NCBI GenBank assembly: GCA_027021705.1
Contig: JALUTT010000073.1
Coordinates: 29,535 to 93,534, forward strand
Reading direction: 5' to 3'
Length of the DNA stretch: 64,000 bases
Source: Anaerolineae bacterium
GTDB taxonomy: Bacteria > Chloroflexota > Anaerolineae > S140-20
A program made the translations under genes and the position numbers. Each line of letters starts with the position of its first letter. Within the stretch, counting starts at the first letter, position 1. Shown in pieces: positions 2,273-48,395 of this stretch. The notes under the pieces were generated by a model, which saw only the letters and a program-made list of their open reading frames with translations, had not been told where the DNA came from and did no database searches.

Positions 2273-3901
2273 GTGAGGCAGGCAGGACGCAGGCTCTGGG
2301 TGGCGGGGCTGGGGGCGCTGGTGGTGCTGGTGTGGGCCAACCTGCCCTACCTGGTCGGCTACGCCCGCTCCACCCCCGACCTCGCCTTCGGCGGCTTCTT
2401 CATCTTCGAGCAGGACGGCTTCTCCTACCTGGCCAAGATGCGCCAGGGGGCGACCGACGGCTGGGAGTACCGCCTGGCCTACACCTCGGAGGCGTTCGCC
2501 CAACAGGGGGAGGTGATCTTCACCCTCTACTTCGCCCTGGGAAAGCTGGAGCGTCTGTTGAGGGTGCCGGCCATCGCCCTCTACCACGCGGCCCGGCTGG
2601 GGGCCGGCCTCCTGCTCCTGGTCCTGCTCTACCGCTTCGTCGCCCATCCCCGTCTCCGGGATGCCGAAGGCCCCTCGGCGGATGAGACGGCGTGGGCCTA
2701 CGGGCTAATCCTCGTCTCCGGCGGCCTGGGCTGGCTCCTCACGCTGCTGAACCCCCGCTACGTCTCCTTGGAGCTGGTCGCGCCCGACGCCTACATCTTC
2801 TCGATGCTCTACGGCCCGCCCCACGTCCCTCTGGCGATGGCCCTCCTGCTGGCCTTCTGGCTGGTGCTGCTGACCGGCGTCGAAGGGGAGCTCACCTGGA
2901 GGCGGCTCCTGACCCTCAACCTGCTGGCCCTGGGCGCGGTCCTGGCCCGGCCCGCCTACGCCCTGGTCCTCTACCCGCTGCTGGGTCTCTGGTGGCTGGG
3001 GGGATGGCTCCTCCCGGCGCAGGCCCCGGCGGGCGGCCTCGTCTCCGGGAAGGTCCGGGGGGAGGCCCGGCGACCCGACCTGCGCCCGCTCCTGGCCGCC
3101 GTCGCGCCGCTGCCCTACCTGGTCTACTTCTACCGGGCCTTTCAGACCAACCGGGCCTACCGGCTCTGGGCCGCTCAGAACCCCTTCGTCACGCCGGGGG
3201 TGGGGGACCTGCTGGTCGGGTTCGGGCTCCTGCTCTTCCCGGCTTTGCTGACGCTGGCCCGCGAGCGGGGGCGCTGGCACCGTCCCCGCCGGCGGCTCTT
3301 CTTCACCTGGGCGGTGGCCGGGCTGCTCCTGGCCTACGCGCCGGTGCCCGTCAGCCGGCGGCTCCTGGCCGGATGGCAGGTCCCGCTGGCCCTGCTGGCC
3401 GTCCGCACCTTCACCCGCTGGCTCCGGCAGCGCCGGATGCGCCCGCTGCCCTACCTGTTGACCGGGCTGCTCCTCCCCTCGACCCTCCTGGTCATCCTGG
3501 GGGGAACGGCCTTGGTGCTCCAGCGGCCGGCGGAGCTCTTCCAGAGCGCCGACGAGCGGGCGATGCTGGCCTGGCTGGCCGACCACGGGAGCGAGCAGGA
3601 CGTGGTCCTGAGCGCTTGGCGAACGGGGAACCGCCTCCCGGCCTGGACGCCGGTTCGGGTCTACGTGGGGCACCCCATCGAGACCCTGGCCTTCGACGAG
3701 AAGGAGGAGGCCGTGCGCCGCTTCTTCGACCCGACGACGCCGGACCGGTGGCGGCAGAGCTTTCTGCGCCGCTGGCGGATCACCTACGTCGTCCACGGCC
3801 CCTTCGAGCGGGCGCTGGGGGGGTGGTCACCGGAGGATGCGCCCTACCTGGAGCCGGTCTTCGGTCAGGGGGAGTACATCGTCTACCGGGTGCGGGAGTA
3901 G
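2273..3901 (+). CDS. Polytopic integral membrane protein, possible GT-C-type glycosyltransferase or DUF membrane protein
   Basis: ORF of 542 aa with many hydrophobic helices (LGALVVLVWANLPYLVGY..., LLLLVLLYRF..., LLLAFWLVLL...). There is an acidic motif in the first loop (IFEQDGFSY) and a large soluble C-terminal domain. Function not recognisable with confidence. Confidence 0.65.
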   Translation: MRQAGRRLWVAGLGALVVLVWANLPYLVGYARSTPDLAFGGFFIFEQDGFSYLAKMRQGATDGWEYRLAYTSEAFAQQGEVIFTLYFALGKLERLLRVPAIALYHAARLGAGLLLLVLLYRFVAHPRLRDAEGPSADETAWAYGLILVSGGLGWLLTLLNPRYVSLELVAPDAYIFSMLYGPPHVPLAMALLLAFWLVLLTGVEGELTWRRLLTLNLLALGAVLARPAYALVLYPLLGLWWLGGWLLPAQAPAGGLVSGKVRGEARRPDLRPLLAAVAPLPYLVYFYRAFQTNRAYRLWAAQNPFVTPGVGDLLVGFGLLLFPALLTLARERGRWHRPRRRLFFTWAVAGLLLAYAPVPVSRRLLAGWQVPLALLAVRTFTRWLRQRRMRPLPYLLTGLLLPSTLLVILGGTALVLQRPAELFQSADERAMLAWLADHGSEQDVVLSAWRTGNRLPAWTPVRVYVGHPIETLAFDEKEEAVRRFFDPTTPDRWRQSFLRRWRITYVVHGPFERALGGWSPEDAPYLEPVFGQGEYIVYRVRE

Positions 3902-3910
3902 GGGGGTGCT

Positions 3911-4046
3911 CTCGTCAACGAATGTTCAACGAATAAACGAATGGGGCGGTTTGTAGGTCGCTTTGGCGTCCTCCTAGCCGGTTGGTTGGCAGACTGCCGC
4001 TTGGGGGGCTGCTCTCGCCAACGAATGTTCAACAAAGCAGAGAAAG
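3911..4046. repeat. Two ~28-bp direct repeats (GCTCTCGyCAACGAATGTTCAAC), each containing ACGAAT triplet motifs
   Basis: 3911-3950 reads ctcgtcaacgaatgttcaacgaataaacgaatgg and 4016-4040 reads ctcgccaacgaatgttcaac. The ACGAAT x3 arrangement resembles the CACGAAT x3 core of the MITE-like element A. The repeats lie in the intergenic region upstream of pepA. Confidence 0.4.
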
Positions 4047-4057
4047 GAGCGTATGCG

Positions 4058-5682: not shown

Positions 5683-6540
5683 ATGACCCGCCCGGTTCCC
5701 CCGGCCCCCACCGGGGTGATGGCCCCCGGCCTGTACCCGGCCGACGTGGACGAAATCCAGGCGATGCTCGCCGAGCTGGAGGCCCTCACGGCCCAACTGC
5801 CGGAAGAGGACGGCCGCCTGATGGAGACGCGACGTCATCACTGCCAGATGGACCTGCTCATCCACTCCCTGCACCACGCTTGGCGGGATCGGCAGGACTT
5901 CTGGGTGGGGGGCAATCAGTTCGTCTACTACAGCGAAGAACAGGCGCGGGCGGTGATCCGGGAGGTGAAGGCCGAGCGGGGGGAAGCTCCCCCGCCCCCC
6001 AAAGGGTTCCGAGCCTACCGAGGACCCGACTTCTTCGTCGTGCGGGGAGTGGACGGCAGCTACTCCCGTCAGAAGTGGGTGGTCTGGCAGGAGGGAGGCC
6101 GATACCCCGACCTGATCGTCGAACTGCTCTCCCCCTCCACCCGGTCCAAGGACCTGGGGGAGAAGAAGCGGCTGTACGAACAGGTCTTCCGCACCTCGGA
6201 GTACTTCGTCTGGGACCCCTTCGATCCCGGCCAGTTCCAGGGATGGCGGCTGCACGATGGGCACTACGAGCCCATCGAGCCTAACGGACGGGGGTGGCGG
6301 TGGAGCGCCGTCCTGGAGATGTGGCTGGGGCCGTGGGAGGGGGTGTACGACCGGGAGCGGGCGGTCTGGCTGCGGTTCTACGATGCCGAGGGGAACCTGG
6401 TCCTCACCGGAGAGGAGGCCGCCGAGCAGCGGGCGGAGGCTGCCGAGCAGCGGGCGGAGGCGGAGCGCCGGCGGGCCGAGGCCGCCGAGGCCGAACTGGA
6501 GAGGGCTGCCGGCCAGGATGACCTGGGCGAGCCAGGATAG
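5683..6540 (+). CDS. Uma2-family (DUF820) PD-(D/E)XK endonuclease with C-terminal AEQRAEA coiled-coil repeats
   Basis: Uma2 hallmarks: YPDLIVELLSPSTRSKDLGEKKRLYEQVFRTSEYFVWDP. The C-terminus is encoded by a tandem DNA repeat (gccgagcagcgggcggaggc x2). Confidence 0.75.
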   Translation: MTRPVPPAPTGVMAPGLYPADVDEIQAMLAELEALTAQLPEEDGRLMETRRHHCQMDLLIHSLHHAWRDRQDFWVGGNQFVYYSEEQARAVIREVKAERGEAPPPPKGFRAYRGPDFFVVRGVDGSYSRQKWVVWQEGGRYPDLIVELLSPSTRSKDLGEKKRLYEQVFRTSEYFVWDPFDPGQFQGWRLHDGHYEPIEPNGRGWRWSAVLEMWLGPWEGVYDRERAVWLRFYDAEGNLVLTGEEAAEQRAEAAEQRAEAERRRAEAAEAELERAAGQDDLGEPG

Positions 6541-8576: not shown

Positions 8577-8654
8577 GCAGGCCGGTGACGAGGGCATTGT
8601 AACACGATCCGGGGCACAGCACAAATTACGCTTTCCGATCGCTCCCACGGCCTG

Positions 8655-8690
8655 AAAACGCGCCCCCGCGCAACCCATGACGCGGGGGCT
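8655..8690 (-). terminator. Candidate rho-independent terminator for the 8750-9535 gene
   Basis: On the minus strand, GCCCCCGCG ... CGCGGGGGC hairpin followed by GCGTTTTC, about 60 nt past the stop. Confidence 0.45.
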
Positions 8691-8749
8691 GTAGTTCTCG
8701 GTGCCTTCGCACCGCTCCAGGAACTTTTCCTGCTGTCCTCTCTCTGGGA

Positions 8750-9535
8750 CTACGGTGTCCATCGTTCAGAGGAGGTTTGATCGTTCATCACTCCCATAGT
8801 CGCACAGCTGCCACCGCAGTCAAGCACTGCTCCCGTCCAATTCGTATGTTCGTAGTGATAGTAGTGATTGCACCCCGCGTAGGAGCGGGCCGAGGAGACC
8901 TCGTCATTCCACCCTGGGGGCATTCCCGGGGACCCGTAAGTCGAACCATCGCTACAGCCGGCGGTGTGGGGCGTTTCCCACACCAGGGATTGTCCCCTGA
9001 AGTTTGAGTCCCAGTAGTCAATCCCAATAACGATGTTGCTCTGAGCTGGTGCGAGCATTTCAGGGGTCACCTCGTCGGGGCCGATGTCGGGGGGCAACCG
9101 TACCGCCCCTCGAGTCGCTGCTGAAATGGCCTCGGAGAATGTGGCGAAGCACCCCACCGGCCGCACTTGTGAAGCGGACTCACCCGGTCTGATGGGATCG
9201 ATCTCGAGCACACAGTGCCGATCTGCCGGGCTTTCCTCAAGATCAGCGTCAAGGCCGGGCAGAGGCTGTGGCGTGGGAAGGGCATTAGCAGGGGAAGGTT
9301 GGAACGTACCAGGATCGAGGCCAATTGATCGGATTGCCTGCTCGAAGCTGCCAAAGCAGATGGGTTCAGACACCTCGGACGCCTCCTGGCCAGGCTGAAT
9401 GGGAGCAATCTGCACGACACAGGAGGGCTGTTCTTCGGGCAGGCTTGCGTTGGCCGGCACTCCGTTCAAGCCGATCCCCAGAACCCCTCCGGCCAAGAGC
9501 AAAGCTGCTAAGGCGAACCAGACCATCTTCCACAT
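8750..9535 (-). CDS. Secreted Cys-containing protein with internal ~50-aa tandem duplication
   Basis: Signal peptide MWKMVWFALAALLLAGGVLGIGLNGVPANA. Two repeats: C-[VL]-[VL]-x-I-x-PI-x-PG-x-x-AS-x-V...P[IV]-[CG]-CF-x-x-F-[SE]-[QE]-AI. C-terminal CNHYYHYEHTNWTGAVLDCGGSC. No recognised family. Confidence 0.65.
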   Translation of the reverse strand: MWKMVWFALAALLLAGGVLGIGLNGVPANASLPEEQPSCVVQIAPIQPGQEASEVSEPICFGSFEQAIRSIGLDPGTFQPSPANALPTPQPLPGLDADLEESPADRHCVLEIDPIRPGESASQVRPVGCFATFSEAISAATRGAVRLPPDIGPDEVTPEMLAPAQSNIVIGIDYWDSNFRGQSLVWETPHTAGCSDGSTYGSPGMPPGWNDEVSSARSYAGCNHYYHYEHTNWTGAVLDCGGSCATMGVMNDQTSSERWTP

Positions 9536-9745
9536 CTTACACCTCCTGAAGCCAAGGTTATCGGGCTGCCCAACTATCCCTAGTGTACCATAGTCGGTGT
9601 TAAATCCTTGTTAAGTCGTGGGGGATCCGCTTGTGGATTAGCATCTCGCCGGCCTTCAGTCGGGTTGAACTACCCGGCAGAGGCTTGAGATGCTTGGAGC
9701 GATCGGTCGTTCACCTTGGCCTGAACTGCGGAATGAGGGGGGGAA

Positions 9746-10954
9746 CTACAGGGGCAAATACACGCTGAAGGTGCTGCCTACTCCGGGGGTGCTTTCGACC
9801 TGGATACGGCCACCGTGCAATTGGACAATGTGCGCCGTGATGGACAAGCCCAGCCCGGCACCACCTCGGTGCCGGGCGCGTGATTGGTCAACCCGGTAGA
9901 AGCGGTCAAAGATGCGAGACTGCTCTTCCGGGGGGATCCCGATGCCGGTGTCTCTGACGCTTATGACCGCCCAATCTGCCTCACGGGAAACCGTAATCGT
10001 CACGGAACCATCCGGACGGTTGTATCGAATCCCGTTCTCGACCAAATTGCTGATTGCTCGAACCAGCAGCGGAACATCCGCCGACAGCACTACGTCGTCA
10101 GCGACCTCGAGGGCCAGGGACACCCGGTGGTCCCGGGCCAGAGGTTCGAGCTCGTGCACTACCTCGGTTAGGAGGACCTCCAGGTTGATGGCCTCCGTTT
10201 GAATTTCCTGCTCCCCTTTTGCTAGGAGCAGGAGAGCGTCCACCAATGCCTCTAGCCTGTCCAATGCCCGTTCGAATGCGATGACCATCTCCCGATAGTC
10301 GGCCAACGTCGCATTGGGATCTTGCCGGATCACTTCCAGGTTTGTGCGAAGGACGGCCAAGGGGGTGCGTAACTCGTGAGATGCATCGGCCACAAATCGG
10401 CTCTGTTGCTCGAAGGCCCGCTCCAGGCGCTCCAACATGTCGTCGAAGGCATCGGCCAGTGCCTTGACCTCATCTTGAGGCCCATCTATGGACAATCGGC
10501 GGTGCAGAGAGTCTACCTGGATCTCTTGGACCAAGCTGGTAAGGCGGCGCACCGGTTGTAGTGCCCGTTGGGCGATCCAGTAAGCCCCCCAAGCTCCTAG
10601 CAGTGTGAAAATTCCCACGCTAATCAATGAGATGATGCGCACTTCGTGGATAGCGATCTCTTGAACCTGTCCTAGAACTAAGGGGGGTGCCGCGCCGGGG
10701 GAGGAGGCCCCTGGCTGGGATGATAATGGGGTTGGTGAAGCCATCAAGGGCAATGGTTCAGAGGAAGGGTATTGGGTCGGCAGGAGGACCTCTCTAATGG
10801 CCTGCGGCACCCTGATGCTCGCTAGGCCGCTGAGGAGCACGATTAGGCCAAAACCGAGGGCCAGGAACAGGCCGGCCGTCCAGAGCGTCAATCGCCAACG
10901 CAGGGTGAGGGATCGGGTGAAGCGGAGATGCCAGGCCCGCAGGAATCGCTTCAT
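9746..10954 (-). CDS. Sensor histidine kinase (TM-HAMP-HisKA-HATPase_c)
   Basis: H-box SHELRTPL, N-box NLVENGIRYN, G-boxes RDTGIGIP and GGAGLGLSI. Two N-terminal TM segments. Confidence 0.85.
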   Translation of the reverse strand: MKRFLRAWHLRFTRSLTLRWRLTLWTAGLFLALGFGLIVLLSGLASIRVPQAIREVLLPTQYPSSEPLPLMASPTPLSSQPGASSPGAAPPLVLGQVQEIAIHEVRIISLISVGIFTLLGAWGAYWIAQRALQPVRRLTSLVQEIQVDSLHRRLSIDGPQDEVKALADAFDDMLERLERAFEQQSRFVADASHELRTPLAVLRTNLEVIRQDPNATLADYREMVIAFERALDRLEALVDALLLLAKGEQEIQTEAINLEVLLTEVVHELEPLARDHRVSLALEVADDVVLSADVPLLVRAISNLVENGIRYNRPDGSVTITVSREADWAVISVRDTGIGIPPEEQSRIFDRFYRVDQSRARHRGGAGLGLSITAHIVQLHGGRIQVESTPGVGSTFSVYLPL

Positions 10955-11640
10955 CCGCCTTCTTCCTCCGGCGGGAGCAGTCGGTACCCCTGGCCTGCGA
11001 CGGTCTCGATGTACCGAGGGTGTTCCGCCCTGTCATCCAGCTTGCGACGCAAGGAGTGGATGTGGACCCGAACGCTGCCGGTGAACAGGTCAACATCCTC
11101 TCCCCAGACGTGCTCGATCAGTTCCTCCTGGCTGATGACCTCGCCAGGGTGACGCATAAGGTAGTGCAAGATCCCGAATTCCTTGCGGGTGAGCTTCAGC
11201 CGCCGCGTCCCCTGCCAGGCCGTTCGACTGGCCGGATCGAGTTTCAGATCACCGACGCACAAAATCGGCTCCCGCACTCTGAGATCACGCCTCAACAGTG
11301 CCCGGATGCGTGCCGCCAGTTCCTCGAAGTGGAAAGGCTTGACCAGGTAATCGTCGGCACCCAGATCGAGTCCGGTGACTTTGTCTTCGAGCCGGCTACG
11401 GGCCGTCAGCATCAGGATGAGCAGTTTGGGTTTGCTGGCCCGCAGACGCCTGCACACTTCCAAGCCGTCCATTCCTGGCAAGTTGAGGTCCAGGATCACC
11501 AAGTCGTAGTCGTTGATCTCGCCCATCGCCCAGCCTTGCTCACCGTCTACAGCGATGTCCACCACGTAGCCCTGCTGGGACAGTCCACGAGCCAGGGCGT
11601 TGGCCAAGTCGAGTTCGTCTTCTACGAGCAGAATTCTCAT
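10951..11640 (-). CDS. OmpR-family response regulator (REC + winged helix)
   Basis: MRILLVEDELDLA...DLVILDLNLPGMDG. C-terminal winged-helix motif RVHIHSLRRKL...YIETVAGQGYRL. 4-nt overlap with the kinase gene. Confidence 0.9.
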   Translation of the reverse strand: MRILLVEDELDLANALARGLSQQGYVVDIAVDGEQGWAMGEINDYDLVILDLNLPGMDGLEVCRRLRASKPKLLILMLTARSRLEDKVTGLDLGADDYLVKPFHFEELAARIRALLRRDLRVREPILCVGDLKLDPASRTAWQGTRRLKLTRKEFGILHYLMRHPGEVISQEELIEHVWGEDVDLFTGSVRVHIHSLRRKLDDRAEHPRYIETVAGQGYRLLPPEEEGG

Positions 11641-12269
11641 TCCACCCTTTCAAGGGCTGAGGGGAAGACCTGAGCCACGGGAACCCGGAAGCCGGTCACG
11701 ACTTGGGAGCGGACGATCTCCCCCAGACCGTACCGGCCGGCCAGCCGGTAGGCCTCTCCCTCCAACACGTAGACCTCAATGGTCCGAGCATCGGGGTCCA
11801 CGATCCAGTACTCGGCCACCCTACCTTCCTGGTAAGCCCGCATCTTCTCCCGGCGGTCATAGAGCCAATTGCCGGGGGGAAGGATCTCGATGATCAGGTC
11901 AGGTGCGCCCTCCACATACTGCTCCCCGAGGATCTTCAGCCGCTCAGCCCGGATGAAGAGGATGTCCGGCTGGAAGGGAACCGGCTGGGAGGGCAGACGG
12001 ACGCCCGTCGGCGCGAAGAGCACCTCTCCCTTCAGAGGGGGCGGATCGTCCCGCAGGAAGGCGGTGAGCGCCTCTACGAGGCGGGCAGCGATGCGTTGGT
12101 GCAGGGTGCTGGGCGGCGGGGCCATATAGAGCACTCCGTCAATCACCTCATAGCGATAGCCGTCGTCAGGAAGCCGCAACCAGTCCTCATAGGTCCATTG
12201 ACCTTGAGGCGGGGGCCAGGCCCGTTCGGAAATCCTTGCCTCCTCCTGAGCCGTTGAAGCCTTTCCCAT
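11637..12269 (-). CDS. Uma2-family (DUF820) PD-(D/E)XK endonuclease
   Basis: YEVIDGVLYMAPPPSTLHQRIAARL...QPDILFIRAERLKILGEQYVEGAPDLIIEILPPGN...REKMRAYQEGRVAEYWIVDP. Its stop overlaps the response-regulator start by 4 nt (ATGA). Confidence 0.75.
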   Translation of the reverse strand: MGKASTAQEEARISERAWPPPQGQWTYEDWLRLPDDGYRYEVIDGVLYMAPPPSTLHQRIAARLVEALTAFLRDDPPPLKGEVLFAPTGVRLPSQPVPFQPDILFIRAERLKILGEQYVEGAPDLIIEILPPGNWLYDRREKMRAYQEGRVAEYWIVDPDARTIEVYVLEGEAYRLAGRYGLGEIVRSQVVTGFRVPVAQVFPSALERVE

Positions 12270-12374
12270 AGCACTCGCCTCTCGTCAGGCACGGGGACGA
12301 GTACAGAGGTCCAGCGGTAAGTCCCTGCCTCAATTGTACTTGCCCCTTTCAAGGGCGTCAAGGCCCCGTCGCCC

Positions 12375-12526
12375 TGTGATTACCCATATCTTTGGAGATA
12401 GGGAGACGAGCCGTCCACGAATGGGACACGAATACACGAATTAAGGACCGCCTCATTCGTGCATTGGTGAGAAATTCGTGGACGGCCTGCTACGGACCAC
12501 TCTCTCGCTCACTTGTGGGTAATCAC
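12375..12526. mobile_element. MITE-like palindromic element A, copy 1 (152 bp; TIR GTGATTACCCA / TGGGTAATCAC)
   Basis: Terminal inverted repeats plus internal inverted repeats (GCCGTCCACGAAT / ATTCGTGGACGGC) and a CACGAAT x3 core. Flanked by a 13-15-bp direct repeat, GCCCCGTCGCCCT(G), at 12363-12376 and 12528-12541, consistent with a target-site duplication. Confidence 0.7.
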
Positions 12527-12550
12527 CGCCCCGTCGCCCTGTCCTACTGC

Positions 12551-13840
12551 CTACCGGACAATGGTCTGCTCCCGGCCCGGGCCGACGCCGATGAGCCGGA
12601 CGGGGACGCCGGTGAGGGCTTCGACCCGCTCGACGTAGCGGCGGGCGGCAGGGGGCAACGCCTCCCAACGCCGGGCCGTCGTCAGGTCCTCCGACCAGCC
12701 GGGTAGCTCCTCGTAGATGGGGCGACAGCGAGCCAGCACGTCGGCCTCGGTGGGGAAATGCTCCAGCCGCTCGCCCCGGTAGTCGTAGGCCACGGCGATC
12801 TTGACCGTCTCGAAGCCGCTCAAGATGTCCAGCTTGGTCAGCGCCAGGCCGGTCAGTCCGTTGACCCGGGCCGCGTAGCGCAGGATCACCGCGTCCAGCC
12901 ACCCGCAGCGGCGGGGCCGGCCCGTCGTCGTGCCGTACTCGTCCCAGGGATTCGCCCCCGTCCCCCGCAGCCGGTCCCCCAACTCGTCCGTCAGTTCGGT
13001 GGGGAAGGGGCCGGCCCCCACCCGGGTGGTGTAGGCTTTGGCGACGCCGATCACCTCTTCGACGTAGCGGGGGCCGAAGCCCAGGCTGGTCAGCGCCCCG
13101 CCGACGGTGGCCGAGGAGCTGGTGACATAAGGATAGGTGCCGTGATCCAGGTCCAGGAGCGTGCCCTGAGCCCCCTCGCACAGGAGGCGTTGCCCGCCGG
13201 CCAGCCGCTCGTTGATGAGCAGGGAGACGTCGGCCAGGTAGGGGGCCAGACGGCGGGCGTAGTCGTGGAACTGGGCGGCGATGGCTTCGGCATCCAGGGC
13301 CGGCTGGCCGTAGACGCCGGTGAGGATGGCGTTCTTGGCCTTCACCGCCTCGTAGACGCGGTCGGCAAACCGCTCCGGGTCCTGCATCATCCCGGCCCGG
13401 AGGCCGGCCCGGGCCGCCTTGTCGGCGTAGGCCGGTCCGATCCCCCGCCGGGTGGTGCCGAGGGCCTTCTTGCCCCGCTGCAACTCCATCGCGCCGTCCA
13501 GGGCGATGTGGTAGGGCAGGATGAGGTGAGCGCCGACGCTGAGCTTCAGCCGGCTGGGGCTGGCGTCCACGCCGCGCTCGGTCAGCCCGTCAATCTCGGC
13601 GATCAGGCGGGCCGGGTTCACGACCATCCCCGCCCCCAGGACGCAAAGGGTGTCAGGGTAGAGGATGCCGGAGGGGATCAAGTGGAGGGCGAAGCGCTCC
13701 CCGCCGACGGTGACGGTGTGGCCGGCGTTGTCGCCGCCGGCGTAGCGGGCCACAATGTCCGCCTGGGCGGCCAGCCAGTCCACCACCCGTCCCTTCCCCT
13801 CATCTCCCCACTGAGTTCCCACCACAATCGTCGCGGTCAT
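12551..13840 (-). CDS. purA: Adenylosuccinate synthetase
   Basis: MTATIVVGTQWGDEGKGRVVDWLA (P-loop), GGDNAGHTV, conserved along the whole length. Start chosen at MTAT (13840) rather than the ORF-track extension. Confidence 0.9.
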   Translation of the reverse strand: MTATIVVGTQWGDEGKGRVVDWLAAQADIVARYAGGDNAGHTVTVGGERFALHLIPSGILYPDTLCVLGAGMVVNPARLIAEIDGLTERGVDASPSRLKLSVGAHLILPYHIALDGAMELQRGKKALGTTRRGIGPAYADKAARAGLRAGMMQDPERFADRVYEAVKAKNAILTGVYGQPALDAEAIAAQFHDYARRLAPYLADVSLLINERLAGGQRLLCEGAQGTLLDLDHGTYPYVTSSSATVGGALTSLGFGPRYVEEVIGVAKAYTTRVGAGPFPTELTDELGDRLRGTGANPWDEYGTTTGRPRRCGWLDAVILRYAARVNGLTGLALTKLDILSGFETVKIAVAYDYRGERLEHFPTEADVLARCRPIYEELPGWSEDLTTARRWEALPPAARRYVERVEALTGVPVRLIGVGPGREQTIVR

Positions 13841-13856: not shown

Positions 13857-13929
13857 TCCTCACGTATCACGCATCACGCATCACGCATCACGCATCACGC
13901 CTCACGCCTCACGCACCACGCACCACCCC
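13857..13929. repeat. Heptanucleotide tandem array A, (NTCACGY)x~10
   Basis: ctcacgt atcacgc x4 ctcacgc x2 accacgc accacc, directly upstream of the purA start. Same unit as the arrays at 43804-43908 (inverted) and 44371-44497. Confidence 0.8.
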
Positions 13930-26153: not shown

Positions 26154-26496
26154 CGCTCAACCCTATCCCTTGTTTTGTCCGTGCTGTCTCAAAAGCATTG
26201 ATGAGCTTATGCCGCATTTGCGCAATGATCGGCTCCTCATCTGCTCCAGATCATCGGAGAACACCGCGCCTTTTGGGGGAGGGAGGAGGATGTGGGCAAC
26301 TAAGCTGACGGACAAGGGGCTCTTTCCAGGAATGCCTTCCCGCGCATCCTGGATGGCGCCATCACTCCTGTCATCGGCCATTGTATGACAACTGGTCAGA
26401 AAAGTCAAGGAATTTACGCAACAACACAGTACAAATCCCCCAAGATACGCGATGCGCAATACGTGTCACACAATGCGACGCGACACGATTTCCCCG

Positions 26497-26647
26497 GTGA
26501 TTACCCATATCTTTGGAGATAGGGAAACGAGCCGTCCACGAATGGGGCACGAATACACGAATCAAGGACCGCCTCATTCGTGCATTTGTGAGAAATTCGT
26601 GGACGGCCTGCTACGGACCACTCTCTCGCTCCCTTGTGGGTAATCAC
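26497..26647. mobile_element. MITE-like palindromic element A, copy 2 (151 bp)
   Basis: About 95% identical to copy 1. Flanked by a 9-bp direct repeat CGATTTCCC (26486-26494 and 26650-26658). It lies between the giant gene's upstream leader and the divergent FtsK-like gene. Confidence 0.7.
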
Positions 26648-26751
26648 CGCGATTTCCCTCTTGACACAGAACAAATGTTCTGGTATCATGTAGCCAGCCC
26701 CTTCCACCGCGTGACAGGCAACCCGCCATACGCATCGCCCGAGGTGTTCCG

Positions 26752-27777
26752 ATGGCCCGCAAGACCAACCGTCAGCTCCTAGAGCTCCAGGCCGATCGCA
26801 TCGAGATGGTCCTGGCCCGGCACAGGGCTCCCGCTCGCGTCGCCGGCGGTGTCGTCACCCCCCGCTGGGTCCGCTTCCACCTGCTCCCCGCCCTGGGGAC
26901 CTCCCTGGCCCGCATCAAGCGCCTCTCCGAGGAGCTGGCTCTCGCCCTGGGTGCCCCCGCCTGCCGCATCAGTCGCCGGGGAGAGCAGTTGGCCCTGGAG
27001 GTTCCCCGTCCCGACCCCCAGCCGGTGCGGCTGCTCCCTTTGCTCCGCTCCCTGGCCCCCCTCCCCTTTGGCACGGCCCTGCTGGGGCTGGCCGAGGATG
27101 GCGCTCCCCTGCTGCTCCGCTTCCCCTCCCCCGACGTGACCCACGTCCTGGTGGCCGGCACCACGGGGTCGGGCAAGACGGCCCTCCTGCGGACCATCAT
27201 CCTCTCCCTGGCCCTGAGCCACCGGCCCCGCGAGTGGGGCTTCGTCTTGGTAGATCCGAAGGGCCGGGCCTTCGAGGGGCTGGCGGGGCTGCCCCACCTG
27301 GTGAGGCCCATCATTCGGGAGGTGGACGACGCCCAGAGCGTGCTGGAGGAGGTGGTCGAGCTGATGGAGCGGCGAGATCGGGAAGGGGTGGCGGAGCCCC
27401 GGCTGCTGGTCGTGGTGGACGAACTGGCGGACCTGCTGCTGGTGGGGAGACGGGGAGGGAGGGGACAGCCATCGGTGTTGCCCCTCCTGGTGCGGCTGGC
27501 CCAGCGAGGACGGGAGGCCGGGGTACACCTGCTGGTGGCGACCCAGAAACCGTCGGCGGCGGTGGTGGGGACGCTGTTGCGGGCCAACTTCCCGGTGCGG
27601 CTGGTAGGACGGGTGGCAAGCTCGGAGGATGCGCGGGTGGCGGCGGGGCGCGGGGGCACCGGGGCGGAGCGGTTGCTGGGACGGGGGGACTTCCTGGCGG
27701 TGGCAGGCGGGCAGGTGGTGCGCTTCCAGGCAGCCTACGTAGGGCAGGACGAGATTCGCCGGTTCGGAGGTGCGTGA
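26752..27777 (+). CDS. FtsK/SpoIIIE-family motor-only ATPase (mini-FtsK; no TM or gamma domain)
   Basis: Walker A HVLVAGTTGSGKTALLRTII, Walker B RLLVVVDELADLL, FtsK arginine-finger region HLLVATQKPSAAVVGTLLRANFPVRLVGRVASSEDARV...GRGDFL. Only 341 aa. Confidence 0.75.
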   Translation: MARKTNRQLLELQADRIEMVLARHRAPARVAGGVVTPRWVRFHLLPALGTSLARIKRLSEELALALGAPACRISRRGEQLALEVPRPDPQPVRLLPLLRSLAPLPFGTALLGLAEDGAPLLLRFPSPDVTHVLVAGTTGSGKTALLRTIILSLALSHRPREWGFVLVDPKGRAFEGLAGLPHLVRPIIREVDDAQSVLEEVVELMERRDREGVAEPRLLVVVDELADLLLVGRRGGRGQPSVLPLLVRLAQRGREAGVHLLVATQKPSAAVVGTLLRANFPVRLVGRVASSEDARVAAGRGGTGAERLLGRGDFLAVAGGQVVRFQAAYVGQDEIRRFGGA

Positions 27778-38187: not shown

Positions 38188-38499
38188 CGCACGCACTGAC
38201 TTGACATGATGGATTATGGGTTATCACCGATCTCGTTGACTTGCGCGACACGATTTCGGGTGGGATGCCACAGGGCTCTCGTCATAGCATCATCATAGGT
38301 GTGGTCATAGGTCTCCTCTAGCCTGGAGGTGGCTTGGCAGTCGGCCTGTCGCCTGTCGTTCCCCAGGCGAGGCCGATCTCTGAACTATGTATGCGCAGTT
38401 TCCGGGTTGCTGCCGATCTCCTGGCTGCCAGGCTTCGTTTCGTGTTGGGCCTAGCGCCGGTCAGGGATGGCAATGGTGTCTCCTAGGAGAGGAAGCACG

Positions 38500-43803: not shown

Positions 43804-43908
43804 GTGAGGTGTGAGGTGTAAAACGTAAGGTGTGAAACGTGAAATGTGAAACGTGAAACGTGAGGCGTGAAACGTGAAGCGTGAGGTGTGGAACGTGAAA
43901 CGTAAGGC
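43804..43908. repeat. Heptanucleotide tandem array B, (GTGARRY)x~15; inverted relative to arrays A and C
   Basis: gtgaggt gtgaggt gtaaaac gtaaggt gtgaaac gtgaaat gtgaaac gtgaaac gtgaggc gtgaaac gtgaagc gtgaggt gtggaac gtgaaac gtaaggc. It ends 2 nt before the stop of the four-helix-bundle gene. Confidence 0.8.
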
Positions 43909-43909
43909 G

Positions 43910-44383
43910 TTACTCCAGTCGGTAGGTGATCTCAGCTTCGCGCAAGGGGCGTCCCCGTTGCTGAGGGATCATCGTCAGCAGCAGTCGGATAATCTCGCTG
44001 AGCAGCGTCAGCCGGTGTTCGAGGATCTCATCTCCCAAGACGTAACGGGCTTTGAAGTACCAATCACGGCTCTCGCGGGCCGACCCCAGAGCGTACTCGT
44101 AAAAGCGTGCGCGATCTCTGCCCGTGCCACGCGAATATCCTTCCGCCAGGTTGGCGCTGATGGAGCCCACCGCCCGGTATAGCTGGTCGGCCAAGGCTCT
44201 CGTCCGCCGGTCCCCGATCAGCCGAGTGACGTCCCGCCACCCCAGGTCACCCAGAAACAGGGCCCGCCTGTACGCCTGCATCCTCCAAAGCGAATCTTTC
44301 TTGATCGCTGCCGGCACCTGGGCCTCCCACTCGGCGTATGTTCTCCAAACGCTGTTCACCTCCTCCCTCCTTTCACGCCTCAC
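43910..44383 (-). CDS. Four-helix-bundle protein (TIGR02436 / 23S rRNA-IVS-protein family; Avd-like)
   Basis: Core ...[24 protein letters not shown]...[44 protein letters not shown]... matches the family signature (I/LAEG, ALGS). The annotated GTG start lies inside heptamer array C, so the true start may be an internal codon (e.g. near MQAYRR). Confidence 0.7.
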
Positions 44384-44497
44384 GCCTTACGTTTCACGCT
44401 TCACGTTTCACGCCTCACGCCTCACGCCTTACGTTTCACGCTTCACGTTTCATGCCTCACGCTTCACACCTCACGCCTCACGCTTCACGCCTCACAT
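44371..44497. repeat. Heptanucleotide tandem array C, (YTCACGY)x~18
   Basis: ttcacgc ctcacgc cttacgt ttcacgc ttcacgt ttcacgc ctcacgc ... It spans the intergenic region and overlaps the 5' end of the four-helix-bundle ORF and the last codons of the GT4 gene. Confidence 0.8.
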
Positions 44498-45722: not shown

Positions 45723-48395
45723 TCACGGGGCTTCCTCCAGCAGCCCGTAGAGACGGTCCAGGGCGGTGCGCAGGACCGGACGCGGCGGCCATTCCATCAG
45801 GGCCTCCTCCAGGGCGACCAGGGCGTCGGGCAGGGCAGTCCGGTCCTGGTCCATCGCAATGGCCTCTTCCAGGAGGGCCAGCCCCTTCGTCTCCTCCCCC
45901 CGCAGGAGCCAGAAGTAGGCCCGGTAGAACTGGTGCGAGGCCTGACGGGGGCTGGTTCCCCACTCGCGCTCCCCGTGCTCGATGGCCCGCTGGTAGGATT
46001 CCAGGGCTTCGTCCTGACGGCCCGCCTTCTCCAGCACGATCCCCCGGTAGGCCCAGGCCCAGCTCCGGTTGGGGATCAGGCGCAGCACCTGCTCCAGACT
46101 CTCCAGCGCTTCGTCGTAGCGCCCCATCAGGGCCAGCACCCGGCCCCGCCCCTCCCAGGGCCAGTAAGAGTCCGGTTCCAGGTGAAGGCGGTGGTCGAAG
46201 GCGTCCAGGGCCTCCTGCAGGCGGCCGGCCATGCGCAGCGCGTTCCCCAACTGGCTCCAGGCCCATCCCCAAGAGGGGGCGAGTTCGGTCACCCGCTGGA
46301 AAGCCTCGGCCGCTTCGGGATACCGCTTCATCGCCGCCAGGGCTTCCCCTTTGCTGGCCCACACCCAGTCGGCGTCCGGCGTCAGGGCCAGCGCCCGGTC
46401 GAAGGCCTCCAGGGCTTCCTGGTAGCGTCGGGCGAAGCGAAGGGTCTCCCCCAGTTGGGCCCAAGCCCAGGCGTACTGGGGCTTGAGCTCCAGGGCGCGG
46501 TGGAGGGCGTCCAACGCTTCGTCGTAGCGTCCCAATTGCTGGAGGGTGCGCCCCAGGTGGGCCCACCCCCAGGCGTAGTCGGGGAGCAGCTCCAGCGCCC
46601 GCTGAAAGGCGTGGCGGGCGTCGGCCGGCCGATCGGCCAGGCGCAGGGTCTCCCCCAGTTGGGCCCAGGCCCAGCCGTACTCCTCGTCCAGGTGGATGGC
46701 CCGCTGGAAGGCGGCGATGGCCTCATCGAAGCGGCGGAGCTGGAGCAGCGCCTGCCCTTTGCTGGCCCAGGCCCAGGCGTAGTCGGGGTCAATCTCCAGG
46801 GCGCGGTCGAAGGCATCCAGCGCCCCCTCGGGGCGTTCGGAGAGCCGGAGCGCCTCCCCCAGGTGGGCCCAGGCCCATTCATAGGCTTCGTCCAGCTCCA
46901 CAGCCCGTCGAAAGGCGGCGATGGCCTCGTCGAAACGGTCCAGCAGGGCCAGGGTCTCCCCCTTGCTGGCCCAGGCCCAGGCGTAGTCGGGCAGCAGTTC
47001 CAACGCCCGGTTGAAGGCGTCCAGGGCCCTCTCGAGATCGCGGCTCAGCCGGAGGGTCTCCCCCAGTTGGGCCCAGGCCCAGCCGTAGTCGGGGGCGATC
47101 TCCAGGGCCCGCTCCAGAGAGGCACGGGCGGCATCGTAGTAACCCATCCGGCGCTGGAGGGCCCCCTGTCGGGCCCAGGCCCAGGCGTAGTCGGGGGCTG
47201 CGGTGACCGCCCGGTCGAAGGCGGAGAGGGCATCCTCGTAGGCTCCCTGGTCTCGGAGCGTCTCGGCCATCCGTCCCCAGGCCCAGGCGTACTCGGGATC
47301 AAGCCGGACGGCCTGCTGGAAGTCGGCGAGGGCCTCATCGTAGCGTTGCATCTGGTGGAAGGCTTCGCCCCGGCTGGCCCAGGCCCAGGCATCCTCGGGG
47401 TCCGCGTCCAGCACCCGGCTGAGGACGTTGACCGCTTCGGGCAGCCGCTCGGCCAGGCGCAGGGCTTCCCCCAGGTGGGCCAGCGCCCACTGGTAGTCGG
47501 GGTCCAGGGCGACGGCCCGCTCCAGAGCGGAGACCGCCTCGTCGTACCGCTCCAGGTCAATCAGCGTCACCCCCAGGTGGGCCCAGGCCCACTCGTAGTC
47601 CGGGTCCAGGGTCACCGCCCGCCGGAAGGCACGGCGTGCTTTCTTCGCCTGTCCGTGGAGGCGGTAGGCCTCGCCCAGGCTGCCCCAGGCCCAGGCGTAT
47701 TGGGGGTCCAGTTCGACGGCCCGCTTCAGGACGGGGATGGCTTCCTCGAAGCGGTTCAACTGGTTGAGGACCTCTCCCAGCCGGCCCAAGGCCCAACTGT
47801 AGTCGGGGTTGAGGGCTACGGCCTGCTCAAAGGCTTCTCGGGCTTCCTCGTAGTTGCGCTGGAGGCGCAGGACCTCGCCCTTGTGGGCCCATGCCCAGGC
47901 GTACTCGGGGTCCAGGGCCAGGGCCCGATCGAAGGCGGCCAGAGCCTCTTCGGGCTGTCCCGACCGGGCGTGGGTCTCCCCCAAGCTGCCCCAGACCCAC
48001 GCGATGTCGGGCTGCAGGTCAATGGCCTGGTACAGGTCGGCCAGGGCGTGTTCCAGGTGGTTTAGGAGGAGGTAGGTCTCGCCCCGGTGGGCCAGGGCCC
48101 AGGCATAGTCGGGCATCAGGGCCAGGGCCCGGTTGAAGGCGATGAGGGCATCCTCAAGGCGACCCAGGGCCAGCAGGGCCTCGCCCTTGTGGGCCCAGGC
48201 CCAGGCCGACCCTGGTACCAAGGCGATGAGTTCTTCGAAAGTGGACAGGGCGTCTTCCAGGCGTCCCTCTTCTCGCAGCCGGTGTCCCTCTTGGGCCAGA
48301 TAGGCGGCGGTCTCCGGCAGCGGGCCTGCTGACGGCTCCCAACCCGCAGCTTCATCCTCTACGATCCGTCCCTGGTGAGAAGGTTTCTCCGCCAT
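45723..48395 (-). CDS. TPR-repeat protein (about 25 tandem tetratricopeptide repeats)
   Basis: 890 aa of 34-aa repeats with consensus AWAWahkGEaLrllgRyeEAlaafdRAlaLdPdy. Confidence 0.85.
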   Translation of the reverse strand: MAEKPSHQGRIVEDEAAGWEPSAGPLPETAAYLAQEGHRLREEGRLEDALSTFEELIALVPGSAWAWAHKGEALLALGRLEDALIAFNRALALMPDYAWALAHRGETYLLLNHLEHALADLYQAIDLQPDIAWVWGSLGETHARSGQPEEALAAFDRALALDPEYAWAWAHKGEVLRLQRNYEEAREAFEQAVALNPDYSWALGRLGEVLNQLNRFEEAIPVLKRAVELDPQYAWAWGSLGEAYRLHGQAKKARRAFRRAVTLDPDYEWAWAHLGVTLIDLERYDEAVSALERAVALDPDYQWALAHLGEALRLAERLPEAVNVLSRVLDADPEDAWAWASRGEAFHQMQRYDEALADFQQAVRLDPEYAWAWGRMAETLRDQGAYEDALSAFDRAVTAAPDYAWAWARQGALQRRMGYYDAARASLERALEIAPDYGWAWAQLGETLRLSRDLERALDAFNRALELLPDYAWAWASKGETLALLDRFDEAIAAFRRAVELDEAYEWAWAHLGEALRLSERPEGALDAFDRALEIDPDYAWAWASKGQALLQLRRFDEAIAAFQRAIHLDEEYGWAWAQLGETLRLADRPADARHAFQRALELLPDYAWGWAHLGRTLQQLGRYDEALDALHRALELKPQYAWAWAQLGETLRFARRYQEALEAFDRALALTPDADWVWASKGEALAAMKRYPEAAEAFQRVTELAPSWGWAWSQLGNALRMAGRLQEALDAFDHRLHLEPDSYWPWEGRGRVLALMGRYDEALESLEQVLRLIPNRSWAWAYRGIVLEKAGRQDEALESYQRAIEHGEREWGTSPRQASHQFYRAYFWLLRGEETKGLALLEEAIAMDQDRTALPDALVALEEALMEWPPRPVLRTALDRLYGLLEEAP

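Follow-up and report, generated by a model that had tools for sequence, protein, structure and literature searches.

The window, that is, the whole stretch of 64,000 nucleotides that was analysed, contains three copies of a short palindromic repeat which we call family A. Counted with their conserved outer bases, the units span positions 12373-12529 (copy 1, 157 bp), 26494-26650 (copy 2, 157 bp) and 38054-38190 (copy 3, 137 bp), all on the plus strand. Copy 1 lies between the stop codon of purA and the start of a gene of the Uma2 family, copy 2 between a gene for a 1889-aa trypsin/NACHT protein and one for a 341-aa protein of the FtsK/SpoIIIE family, and copy 3 between a DJ-1/PfpI gene and an operon for a small protein, a response regulator and a histidine kinase. 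All copies are intergenic, as the original prediction, made from the letters of the window alone, had stated. It had also put their mutual identity at about 95%, and the three repeats were found where it had placed them, about 96% identical. Copies 1 and 2 share 96% identity over 158 nt, and copy 3 shows 96-98% identity where it can be aligned; a T and a stretch of 19 nt from the right inner arm are missing from it. The window is otherwise ordinary chromosome, with moaA, pepA, purB, purA, guaA, mfd, folE and folK among its genes, and the best matches of its proteins carry Anaerolineae or Thermoflexia names, at 59-68% identity, which points to a host of Chloroflexota-like affinity.

Each unit is bounded by terminal inverted repeats (TIRs) of 11-13 bp, CGGTGATTACCCA / TGGGTAATCACCG, which are 100% complementary in all three copies of the window and are kept across 46 aligned copies of family A; in the consensus they measure 13 bp, with one additional conserved base beside each. 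The register of the element was set as CC-GGTG...CACC-GC, with the outer conserved bases counted as part of it, and a pattern such as CGGTGATTACCC ... GGGTAATCACCG would describe the two termini. Copy 1, with 97.5% identity to the family consensus, reads CCTGTGATTA at its left terminus where CCGGTGATTA is expected. Between the termini lies an inner inverted repeat with arms of 32 nt that are 81% complementary and carry CACGAAT three times, at spacings of 11 and 8 nt; in the family consensus this part forms an inner hairpin of 77 bp with three CACGAAT heptamers per arm. Both the TIRs and the inner repeat with its triple heptamer had been predicted, and both are present. Family A has no coding capacity, and the open reading frames that cross the element, of about 50 aa, are spurious.

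The triple heptamer also occurs in the window without the rest of the element. A related ACGAAT triplet at 3911-4046 had been taken for a relic of the family, and a module of the form CAACGAAT-GTTC-AACGAAT-A-AACGAAT is indeed found at 3914-3945 on the plus strand, with a partial second copy at about 4017-4033. The arrangement [AC]ACGAAT-N4-[AC]ACGAAT-A-[AC]ACGAAT, with identical spacing, is common to 3911-4046, to the core of the element and to a variant element at L047:1762. This inner heptamer module is all that 3911-4046 holds in common with family A, since terminal repeats are absent there.

Further copies were sought with an invariant exact 22-mer, ATTCGTGGACGGCCTGCTACGG, which lies in the right inner arm. 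All family statistics given here come from DNA fetched around copies holding this exact word, so that copy numbers are lower bounds and divergence is understated. Among species-representative genomes the 22-mer gave one match, on the MAG contig JALUTY010000047, and in the JGI metagenomes it gave 62, all of them in a single sample (Ga0256830), where they are spread over many long contigs. The copy-number check that the original prediction had called for thus returned a dispersed family with at least 60 loci carrying the exact 22-mer, and the flanks of the copies are unrelated to each other. From the fifty full copies whose orientation could be established, a consensus of 157 bp was derived, to which one copy is identical; pairwise identity among them averages 94%. 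No region of the window was orthologous at the DNA level to the Ga0256830 loci, and the best shared protein showed 45% identity. DNA identical to the window was found in ENA ERZ27262676 and Logan SRR8439019, in contigs that end inside the element, which is the usual behaviour of assemblers at repeats. When strain polymorphism at copies 1 and 2 was sought through exact matches of proteins, such identical assemblies were all that came back, their contigs breaking in the repeat.

Flanking duplications were analysed across the family. Exact flanking repeats of at least 6 bp were present at 36 of 58 copies, compared to 0.6% in a control that joined the left flank of one copy to the right flank of another. 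A register analysis showed a dominant period of the element plus 8 bp, with minor classes of 7 and 9 bp. In the same analysis, the outer conserved bases matched their would-be partners only about 50% of the time, which assigns them to the element rather than the duplication. With this register, copy 1 is flanked by an 8-bp target-site duplication (TSD), CCCGTCGC, at 12365-12372 and 12530-12537; a flanking match of 15 nt does exist, and its part beyond 8 bp overlaps the termini of the element. At copy 2 the duplication is GATTTCC, at 26487-26493 and 26651-26657, or, with the outer C included, the 9-bp CGATTTCCC at 26486-26494. The duplications that had been described at these two copies are hence real, but their proposed lengths (13-15 bp and 9 bp) give way to a family-wide length of 8 bp. 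Since more than 60 further copies exist and duplications are far more frequent than with shuffled flanks, a chance origin of the pattern is excluded.

No duplication directly adjoins the ends of copy 3. At 38216-38229 on the plus strand, 40 bp downstream of it, there is a second right terminus in degenerate form, TATGGGTTATCACCG, which resembles the right end of the element type at L009:4979-5141. After this terminus, at 38231-38237, comes TCTCGTT, the same word as in the left flank of copy 3 at 38047-38053. This layout suggests that copy 3 and the second degenerate terminus make up a composite or a rearranged double insertion. The internal deletion of 19 bp that had been noted for copy 3 is thus present, but it is accompanied by the loss of a T, and the copy seems to be one part of a larger structure.

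Insertion polymorphism was assessed by comparison with relatives. In GCA_964575835.1 (L068), whose PurA is 96% identical to that of the window and whose DNA is 93% identical to it, the sequence is collinear on either side of copy 1 but lacks window positions 12371-12552, while the promoter and leader of the Uma2 gene are conserved. Copy 1 is accordingly missing at the purA/Uma2 promoter of this relative, which is the kind of polymorphism that the original prediction had proposed to look for. The empty-site junction is imperfect, with a 14-nt indel adjoining it, and this is the single orthologous empty site that was obtained; for that one locus, a deletion in the relative is a formal alternative. 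For copy 3, no empty site could be read from the relatives L070 and L071, which have a different upstream neighbour, and their homology to the window ends exactly at the -35 box of the DJ-1 promoter.

Folded as a single strand, the element forms one long hairpin of about -70 kcal/mol with a z-score of about -8 on either strand. So stable a structure, together with the constant intergenic location, is what one would look for in a conserved structured non-coding RNA or in a regulatory palindrome of the host that does not move. We regard this identity as very improbable. Rfam gave no match at the gathering threshold over the whole window and no relevant one up to E = 1, the sole permissive match of the element being mir-150 at the chance level of E = 0.63. 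A compensatory change was seen in 1 of 46 predicted pairs, and the covariation term over 46 aligned copies was -0.3 kcal/mol, in a test that is weak because these copies have diverged little and their right arm is fixed by the search word. Neither a promoter-like nor a terminator-like site was found inside the element, which speaks against an RNA gene and also against the idea, put forward originally, of a mobile promoter, terminator or sRNA module. Moreover, copies occur in both orientations relative to the neighbouring promoter, are flanked by duplications, and are missing at the orthologous site of the close relative L068. Conserved synteny with compensatory, structure-preserving changes had been named as the pattern to be expected of an RNA, and the empty orthologous site of copy 1 is the opposite of it.

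A palindromic body adjoining a short conserved word, TTGAC (see below), could also bring to mind hairpin repeats that are moved by a single-strand transposase, such as REP/REPIN sequences with their RAYT or palindromic elements of the IS200/IS605 type. IS200/IS605 elements insert beside penta- or tetranucleotide targets, such as TTGAT or TTAC. REP/REPIN and IS200/IS605-derived elements, however, have neither terminal inverted repeats nor target-site duplications, and family A has both, with duplications of 8 bp. The conserved word, in addition, does not abut the junction but follows 3 nt after the duplication; among 52 targeted -35 hexamers, 20 differ from TTGAC; and copies are seen in both orientations. 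This origin appears to us the least probable of those considered here, slightly below even that of a structured RNA.

The dispersed family, the combination of TIRs and TSDs, the lack of covariation and of Rfam matches, and the absence of copy 1 from a relative lead us to read family A as a non-autonomous transposon. Collectively, these results support the identification of the three repeats of the window as MITEs, belonging to a family of non-autonomous DNA transposons that has been amplified recently. The dispersal of the family, its duplications above the control and the empty site in L068 also bear out the earlier view that the copies reflect transposition and not a conserved regulatory function.

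The position of the copies beside -35 boxes had no part in the original prediction. Promoters were predicted from sequence, the motif being of the sigma-70 type (TTGACa, 17 nt, TAnAAT). The word TTGAC starts 11-15 nt past the terminal ...CACC in 33 of 110 flanks, compared to 0-1 at any other offset, and the reverse word was never found at 11-15 nt in these 110 flanks. When the word was relaxed to TTG[ACT][AC], it was present at this place on exactly one side in 45 of 55 elements and on both sides in none. Flanks aligned on TTG show the profile cTTGACa, 17 nt, tGnTAnAAT, in which the T/A/T positions of the -10 box reach 84-86% and the spacer is unconserved; the promoters are therefore resident and mutually unrelated, and do not belong to the repeat. 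The spacer measures 17 nt in 43 of 52 promoters. A score of at least 4 on a 5-point promoter scale was obtained for 41 of 55 elements, whereas random positions reached it in 2.0% of cases where they were non-coding-like and in 0.4% overall; nine further elements of the 55 have a non-canonical -35 box with a full -10 box. About 10% of the copies, for instance those at L016, L026 and L047, have no recognisable adjacent promoter. Truncated, one-ended copies likewise have a promoter beside the intact end.

The distance between duplication and promoter is nearly constant. Counted from the promoter-proximal end of the duplication, TTG follows after a gap of 3 nt in 23 of 42 copies and of 2 nt in 9 of 42, and the duplicated 8 bp correspond to about -47/-46 to -39 relative to the start site. 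On the promoter side, a ribosome-binding site, a start codon and an open reading frame of at least 100 aa were found in 27 of 36 copies, mostly 39-150 nt downstream, whereas the opposite side had them in 16 of 36, with a flat distribution of distances. The -35 hexamers themselves vary. TTGAC occurs in 32 of 52, and the other 20 share only TTG and yet have good -10 boxes; at least 13 different hexamers are used in all, and the TTG that they have in common is invariant at its fixed offset. Compensation of a weak -35 box by a perfect -10 box was seen as a trend only (p = 0.12). The C at position -36 proved to be a general feature of promoters in these genomes and not a target motif, and no extra motif was seen.

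Copies 1 and 2 of the window follow this rule, and a separate promoter scan recovered exactly the promoters that adjoin them. Beside copy 1, a predicted promoter on the minus strand (12333-12361) consists of the -35 box TTGACG (12361-12356), a 17-nt spacer and the -10 box TACAAT (12338-12333), and would serve the Uma2, response-regulator and histidine-kinase genes. Because the Uma2 promoter is present without the element in L068, it is older than the insertion. Beside copy 2, the predicted promoter lies on the plus strand (26661-26689), with TTGACA, a 17-nt spacer holding the palindrome AGAACAAATGTTCT and the extended -10 box TGgTATCAT, upstream of the FtsK/SpoIIIE-family gene (26752-27777). 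At both copies, 3 nt lie between the duplication and the -35 box downstream of it. At copy 3, TTGACA is found at the usual 12-nt offset (38201-38206), with no usable -10 box after it.

Insertion of family A is thus strongly site-selective, the element being found at one fixed position about 3 nt upstream of the -35 box, with the promoter on one side only and the element in either orientation. By hand count the two orientations next to the promoter stand at about 26:14, with the same offset in both, and this bias is not significant. The position is also shared by elements other than family A proper. Two elements with the same termini and unrelated interiors, at L009:4979-5141 (163 bp) and L029:1849-1959 (111 bp), show the same offset, and remnants at L042 and L059 adjoin family-A copies at such promoter sites. 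Since other interiors occupy the same position, the CACGAAT core is not the thing that is selected. At L009, moreover, CTGCTGACC occurs three times around two tandem elements that lie between two divergent promoters, and a tandem layout with a shared duplication, as at L009, is seen at L042, L059 and L011 as well.

The same pattern might in principle have been produced after the event, with random insertion into intergenic DNA followed by selection, for example for an activating, insulating or transcription-factor-binding role of the CACGAAT arrays upstream of a promoter. The occurrence of the triple-heptamer module outside the elements, at 3914-3945, is what would be expected of an array of binding sites, and insertions inside genes would be purged by selection in any case. 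On the other hand, the position varies by no more than 1-2 nt whichever way the element points, and neutral intergenic insertions, which should have survived elsewhere, could account for only about 10% of the copies. Elements with common termini and unrelated interiors hold the same position, and tandem elements re-use identical stretches of 8-9 bp. Selection after insertion would hardly yield nucleotide precision in both orientations along with the loss of neutral insertions, and we consider it improbable, though not to the degree of the two identities dismissed above. Both orientations, alternative interiors and re-used targets, taken together, place the bias in the insertion step. The explanation that best covers all observations, and which we hold to be probably correct, is therefore that of a MITE family with an 8-bp (7-9 bp) duplication whose insertion is targeted to a site just upstream of the -35 box of promoters.

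In the mechanism that we propose, the shared termini would be recognised by a transposase provided in trans, presumably one of the DDE type whose cuts are staggered by 8 bp. This enzyme would be placed at the target either by the -35 element itself or by contact with a promoter-bound RNA polymerase or sigma factor. The edge of the promoter would in this way act as a safe haven, where neither the core promoter nor the gene would be disrupted and the displacement, by 165 bp, would affect only the DNA further upstream.

How the promoter is recognised can be accounted for along two lines, which we rate as roughly equal. According to the first, the transposase or a partner protein reads the -35 hexamer as DNA, by means of a helix-turn-helix resembling sigma region 4, and cuts at a fixed distance from it. 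The invariance of TTG at its offset, the dominance of TTGAC (32/52), the strict orientation relative to the hexamer and the lack of any further target motif are all consistent with this reading, which we hold as a tentative option somewhat short of even chances. It has to be weighed against the variety of at least 13 hexamers that share only TTG and all come with a proper -10 box. TTG alone holds too little information to define a site, which hints that the whole promoter or a bound protein is recognised.

According to the second line, to which we give a comparable if marginally smaller credence, the transpososome may be tethered to the promoter-bound RNA polymerase holoenzyme, through sigma region 4 or the alpha C-terminal domains at -38 to -47, or may respond to the DNA bend that the holoenzyme makes. 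The targets do look like complete functional promoters, in which the -35 box varies and the -10 box and spacer are good. At promoters of E. coli, taken as the model, the zone from about -46 to -39 is where sigma region 4 and the alpha C-terminal domain come together, and the duplicated 8 bp of family A would coincide with this proximal UP-element and alpha-CTD contact zone. Furthermore, insertions have been repeated at the same spot even though the first one had replaced all of the DNA upstream. Against this, intergenic TTGAC words are mostly promoters anyway, so that a read-out of sequence would look alike. We know of no bacterial case of transposition tethered to promoter-bound RNA polymerase. 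The more specific proposal that a DNA transposon docks on sigma-A/RNA polymerase at the -35 box, or on its bend, and integrates 3 nt upstream, as a prokaryotic counterpart of Ty3 and Ty1 that would disperse 157-bp hairpins along the upstream border of active promoters throughout the genome, is one that we regard as possible but doubtful.

A cognate transposase associated with these TIRs, the search for which had been recommended, was not found in any of the sources covered. In the window, a Pfam analysis of 36 open reading frames revealed no transposase domain, and there were no further matches to the terminal repeats. In about 600 kb of fetched loci, screened for pairs of terminal repeats 0.3-4 kb apart and for multi-copy families of open reading frames, no transposase gene with these termini was detected. 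Searches of IMG/VR with a 19-mer of the terminus and of plasmids by blastn gave no autonomous element either. The segment L043:1759-4979 was tried as a candidate for an autonomous element, which was not borne out.

As regards its anatomy, family A is an ordinary MITE. It resembles known bacterial MITEs (Correia/NEMIS of Neisseria, ERIC, RUP, MITEAba12 and Nezha) in being short (about 100-160 bp), non-coding, multi-copy and intergenic, and in having TIRs, TSDs and a long hairpin; those elements are presumed to be moved in trans by the transposase of an insertion sequence (IS), as family A would be. What is unusual is its precise target specificity for the edge of promoters. In its section on the choice of insertion sites, a 2024 review of prokaryotic MITEs gives insertion preferences as intergenic, 3' UTR or clustering only and, unlike what we see for family A, reports none of the families it treats at a fixed distance from a -35 box (PMC10969869). 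The Correia element duplicates TA and brings promoter parts of its own, whereas family A makes an 8-bp duplication and abuts a resident promoter. Our literature searches found no bacterial MITE, IS or transposon described at a fixed distance from the -35 box.

The closest parallels in behaviour come from elsewhere. Ty3 and Ty1 at genes transcribed by Pol III and Tf1 at Pol II promoters insert, as family A does, at a fixed short distance upstream, leave the gene intact and hit the same place repeatedly; they are, however, eukaryotic LTR retroelements whose integrase is tethered to transcription factors, whereas family A is a bacterial DNA element with TIRs. Tn7 at attTn7 downstream of glmS, class C group II introns after terminators, and IS1397 and ISKpn1 in the loops of REP/BIME sequences also use a functional non-coding landmark at a set distance. 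The landmark of family A differs from these in being the -35 region of many promoters, and not one locus, a terminator hairpin or a repeat.

Among insertion sequences, duplications of 8 (7-9) bp like those of family A are made by IS1, IS6/IS26, IS256, ISL3, IS66 and IS1595, a likeness that we take as a lead only. IS1 has the terminus GGTGATG... and IS6/IS26 the terminus GGTTCTG..., and the terminus of family A, (CC)GGTGATTACCC, begins like that of IS1. When compared with what is characteristic of IS1, whose members are mobilised by an InsAB' transposase and duplicate 8-9 bp, the length of the duplication fits, and GGTGATT agrees only in part with a GGnnnTG terminus. By termini and duplication IS1 and IS6 are the closest IS families, which again serves as a lead and not as an assignment. 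To our knowledge, none of the six IS groups named targets promoters.

MITEs are common and usually unremarkable, but a single nucleotide-precise position at dozens of unrelated promoters is not. Should the bias be mechanistic, it would add to the target choices of bacterial transposons a new class, in which the edge of the promoter serves as a safe haven, and a transposase or adaptor able to read promoters or RNA polymerase would still await discovery. For an uncultured Chloroflexota-like lineage, the copies would then also chart the sigma-A promoters in the manner of a natural map, and their spread would be a route by which UP elements and activator sites are cut off from core promoters genome-wide. 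An integrase directed to promoters would, in addition, be of practical interest for genome engineering.

Family A, the 157-bp MITE with 13-bp terminal inverted repeats, is not the only element that carries these termini. At least two more element types have the GGTGATTACCC termini of family A and different, GC-rich interiors, and each lies either at the edge of a promoter or beside a family-A copy in a tandem arrangement. Elements or termini of these further types were located in four of the loci fetched around element matches outside the window (L009:4979-5141, L029:1849-1959, from L042:4511 onward and from L057:6769 onward) as well as in the window itself at 38216-38229. In one of these types the two ends contain ...ATCTCGGGAATCCGCCC... 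and ...GACTTATGGGTAATCACC, respectively.

The promoter of the DJ-1/PfpI gene, next to copy 3, was compared with the relative JGI Ga0172420 (L070), which is 89% identical at the DNA level and keeps the window's order through the DJ-1 gene and into its promoter. Collinearity stops exactly at the first T of the DJ-1 -35 hexamer (window 37930-37960, minus strand, versus L070:565-595), and the DNA upstream is unrelated. Within the 94 nt separating this hexamer from copy 3 stands ATATGGGT, with which an element terminus begins; it may be the trace of an older insertion at this promoter edge. Two short-read contigs of the window's own organism, L002 and L067 (Logan SRR8439019), break off within the element, at 17 nt and about 25 nt, respectively, from a terminus, a sign in the assembly that the repeat has many copies in this genome.

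The triple-heptamer module [AC]ACGAAT-N4-[AC]ACGAAT-A-[AC]ACGAAT was also present without terminal repeats at window 3901-4051, immediately 5' of the pepA-like gene, where it is part of a 48-nt sequence that recurs in direct orientation at a distance of 103 nt. At L047:1762-1870 it forms an inverted pair, which is inserted into a family-A copy in its left arm. The module may serve as an array of protein-binding sites or may be a small palindromic element in its own right. Tandem heptamer arrays occupy three intergenic positions in the window, namely TCACGCA x9.6 immediately 5' of the purA start (13860-13926), GTGAAAC x10 (43832-43903) and TCACGCC x17.6 (44373-44495); the unit CACGnnT is similar to the CACGAAT heptamers inside the MITE. 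The MITE copy at L016 lies inside a (GTCCGCA)n array (L016:1360-1400) and not at a promoter edge.

In the relative GCA_964575835.1, purB directly follows Uma2 (L068:6004-6019), whereas the window (about 8600-11630) has between these genes an extra response regulator (10951-11640), a HAMP histidine kinase (9746-10954) and one additional ORF. This difference in gene content immediately adjoins the MITE-bearing promoter of copy 1. A minus-strand gene (45723-48395) encodes an 890-aa protein made up nearly entirely of TPR repeats, with a DNA periodicity of 102 nt over about 20 units, and three Uma2-family genes lie in or near the same stretch (among them those at 5683-6540 and 11637-12269).

Beside copy 2, the palindrome AGAACAAATGTTCT (GAAC-N4-GTTC, window 26668-26681) resembles a LexA/Cheo box. 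It occupies the spacer that separates the -35 from the -10 hexamer upstream of the 341-aa FtsK/SpoIIIE-family ATPase gene, which suggests that this gene encodes an SOS-regulated short FtsK-like protein.
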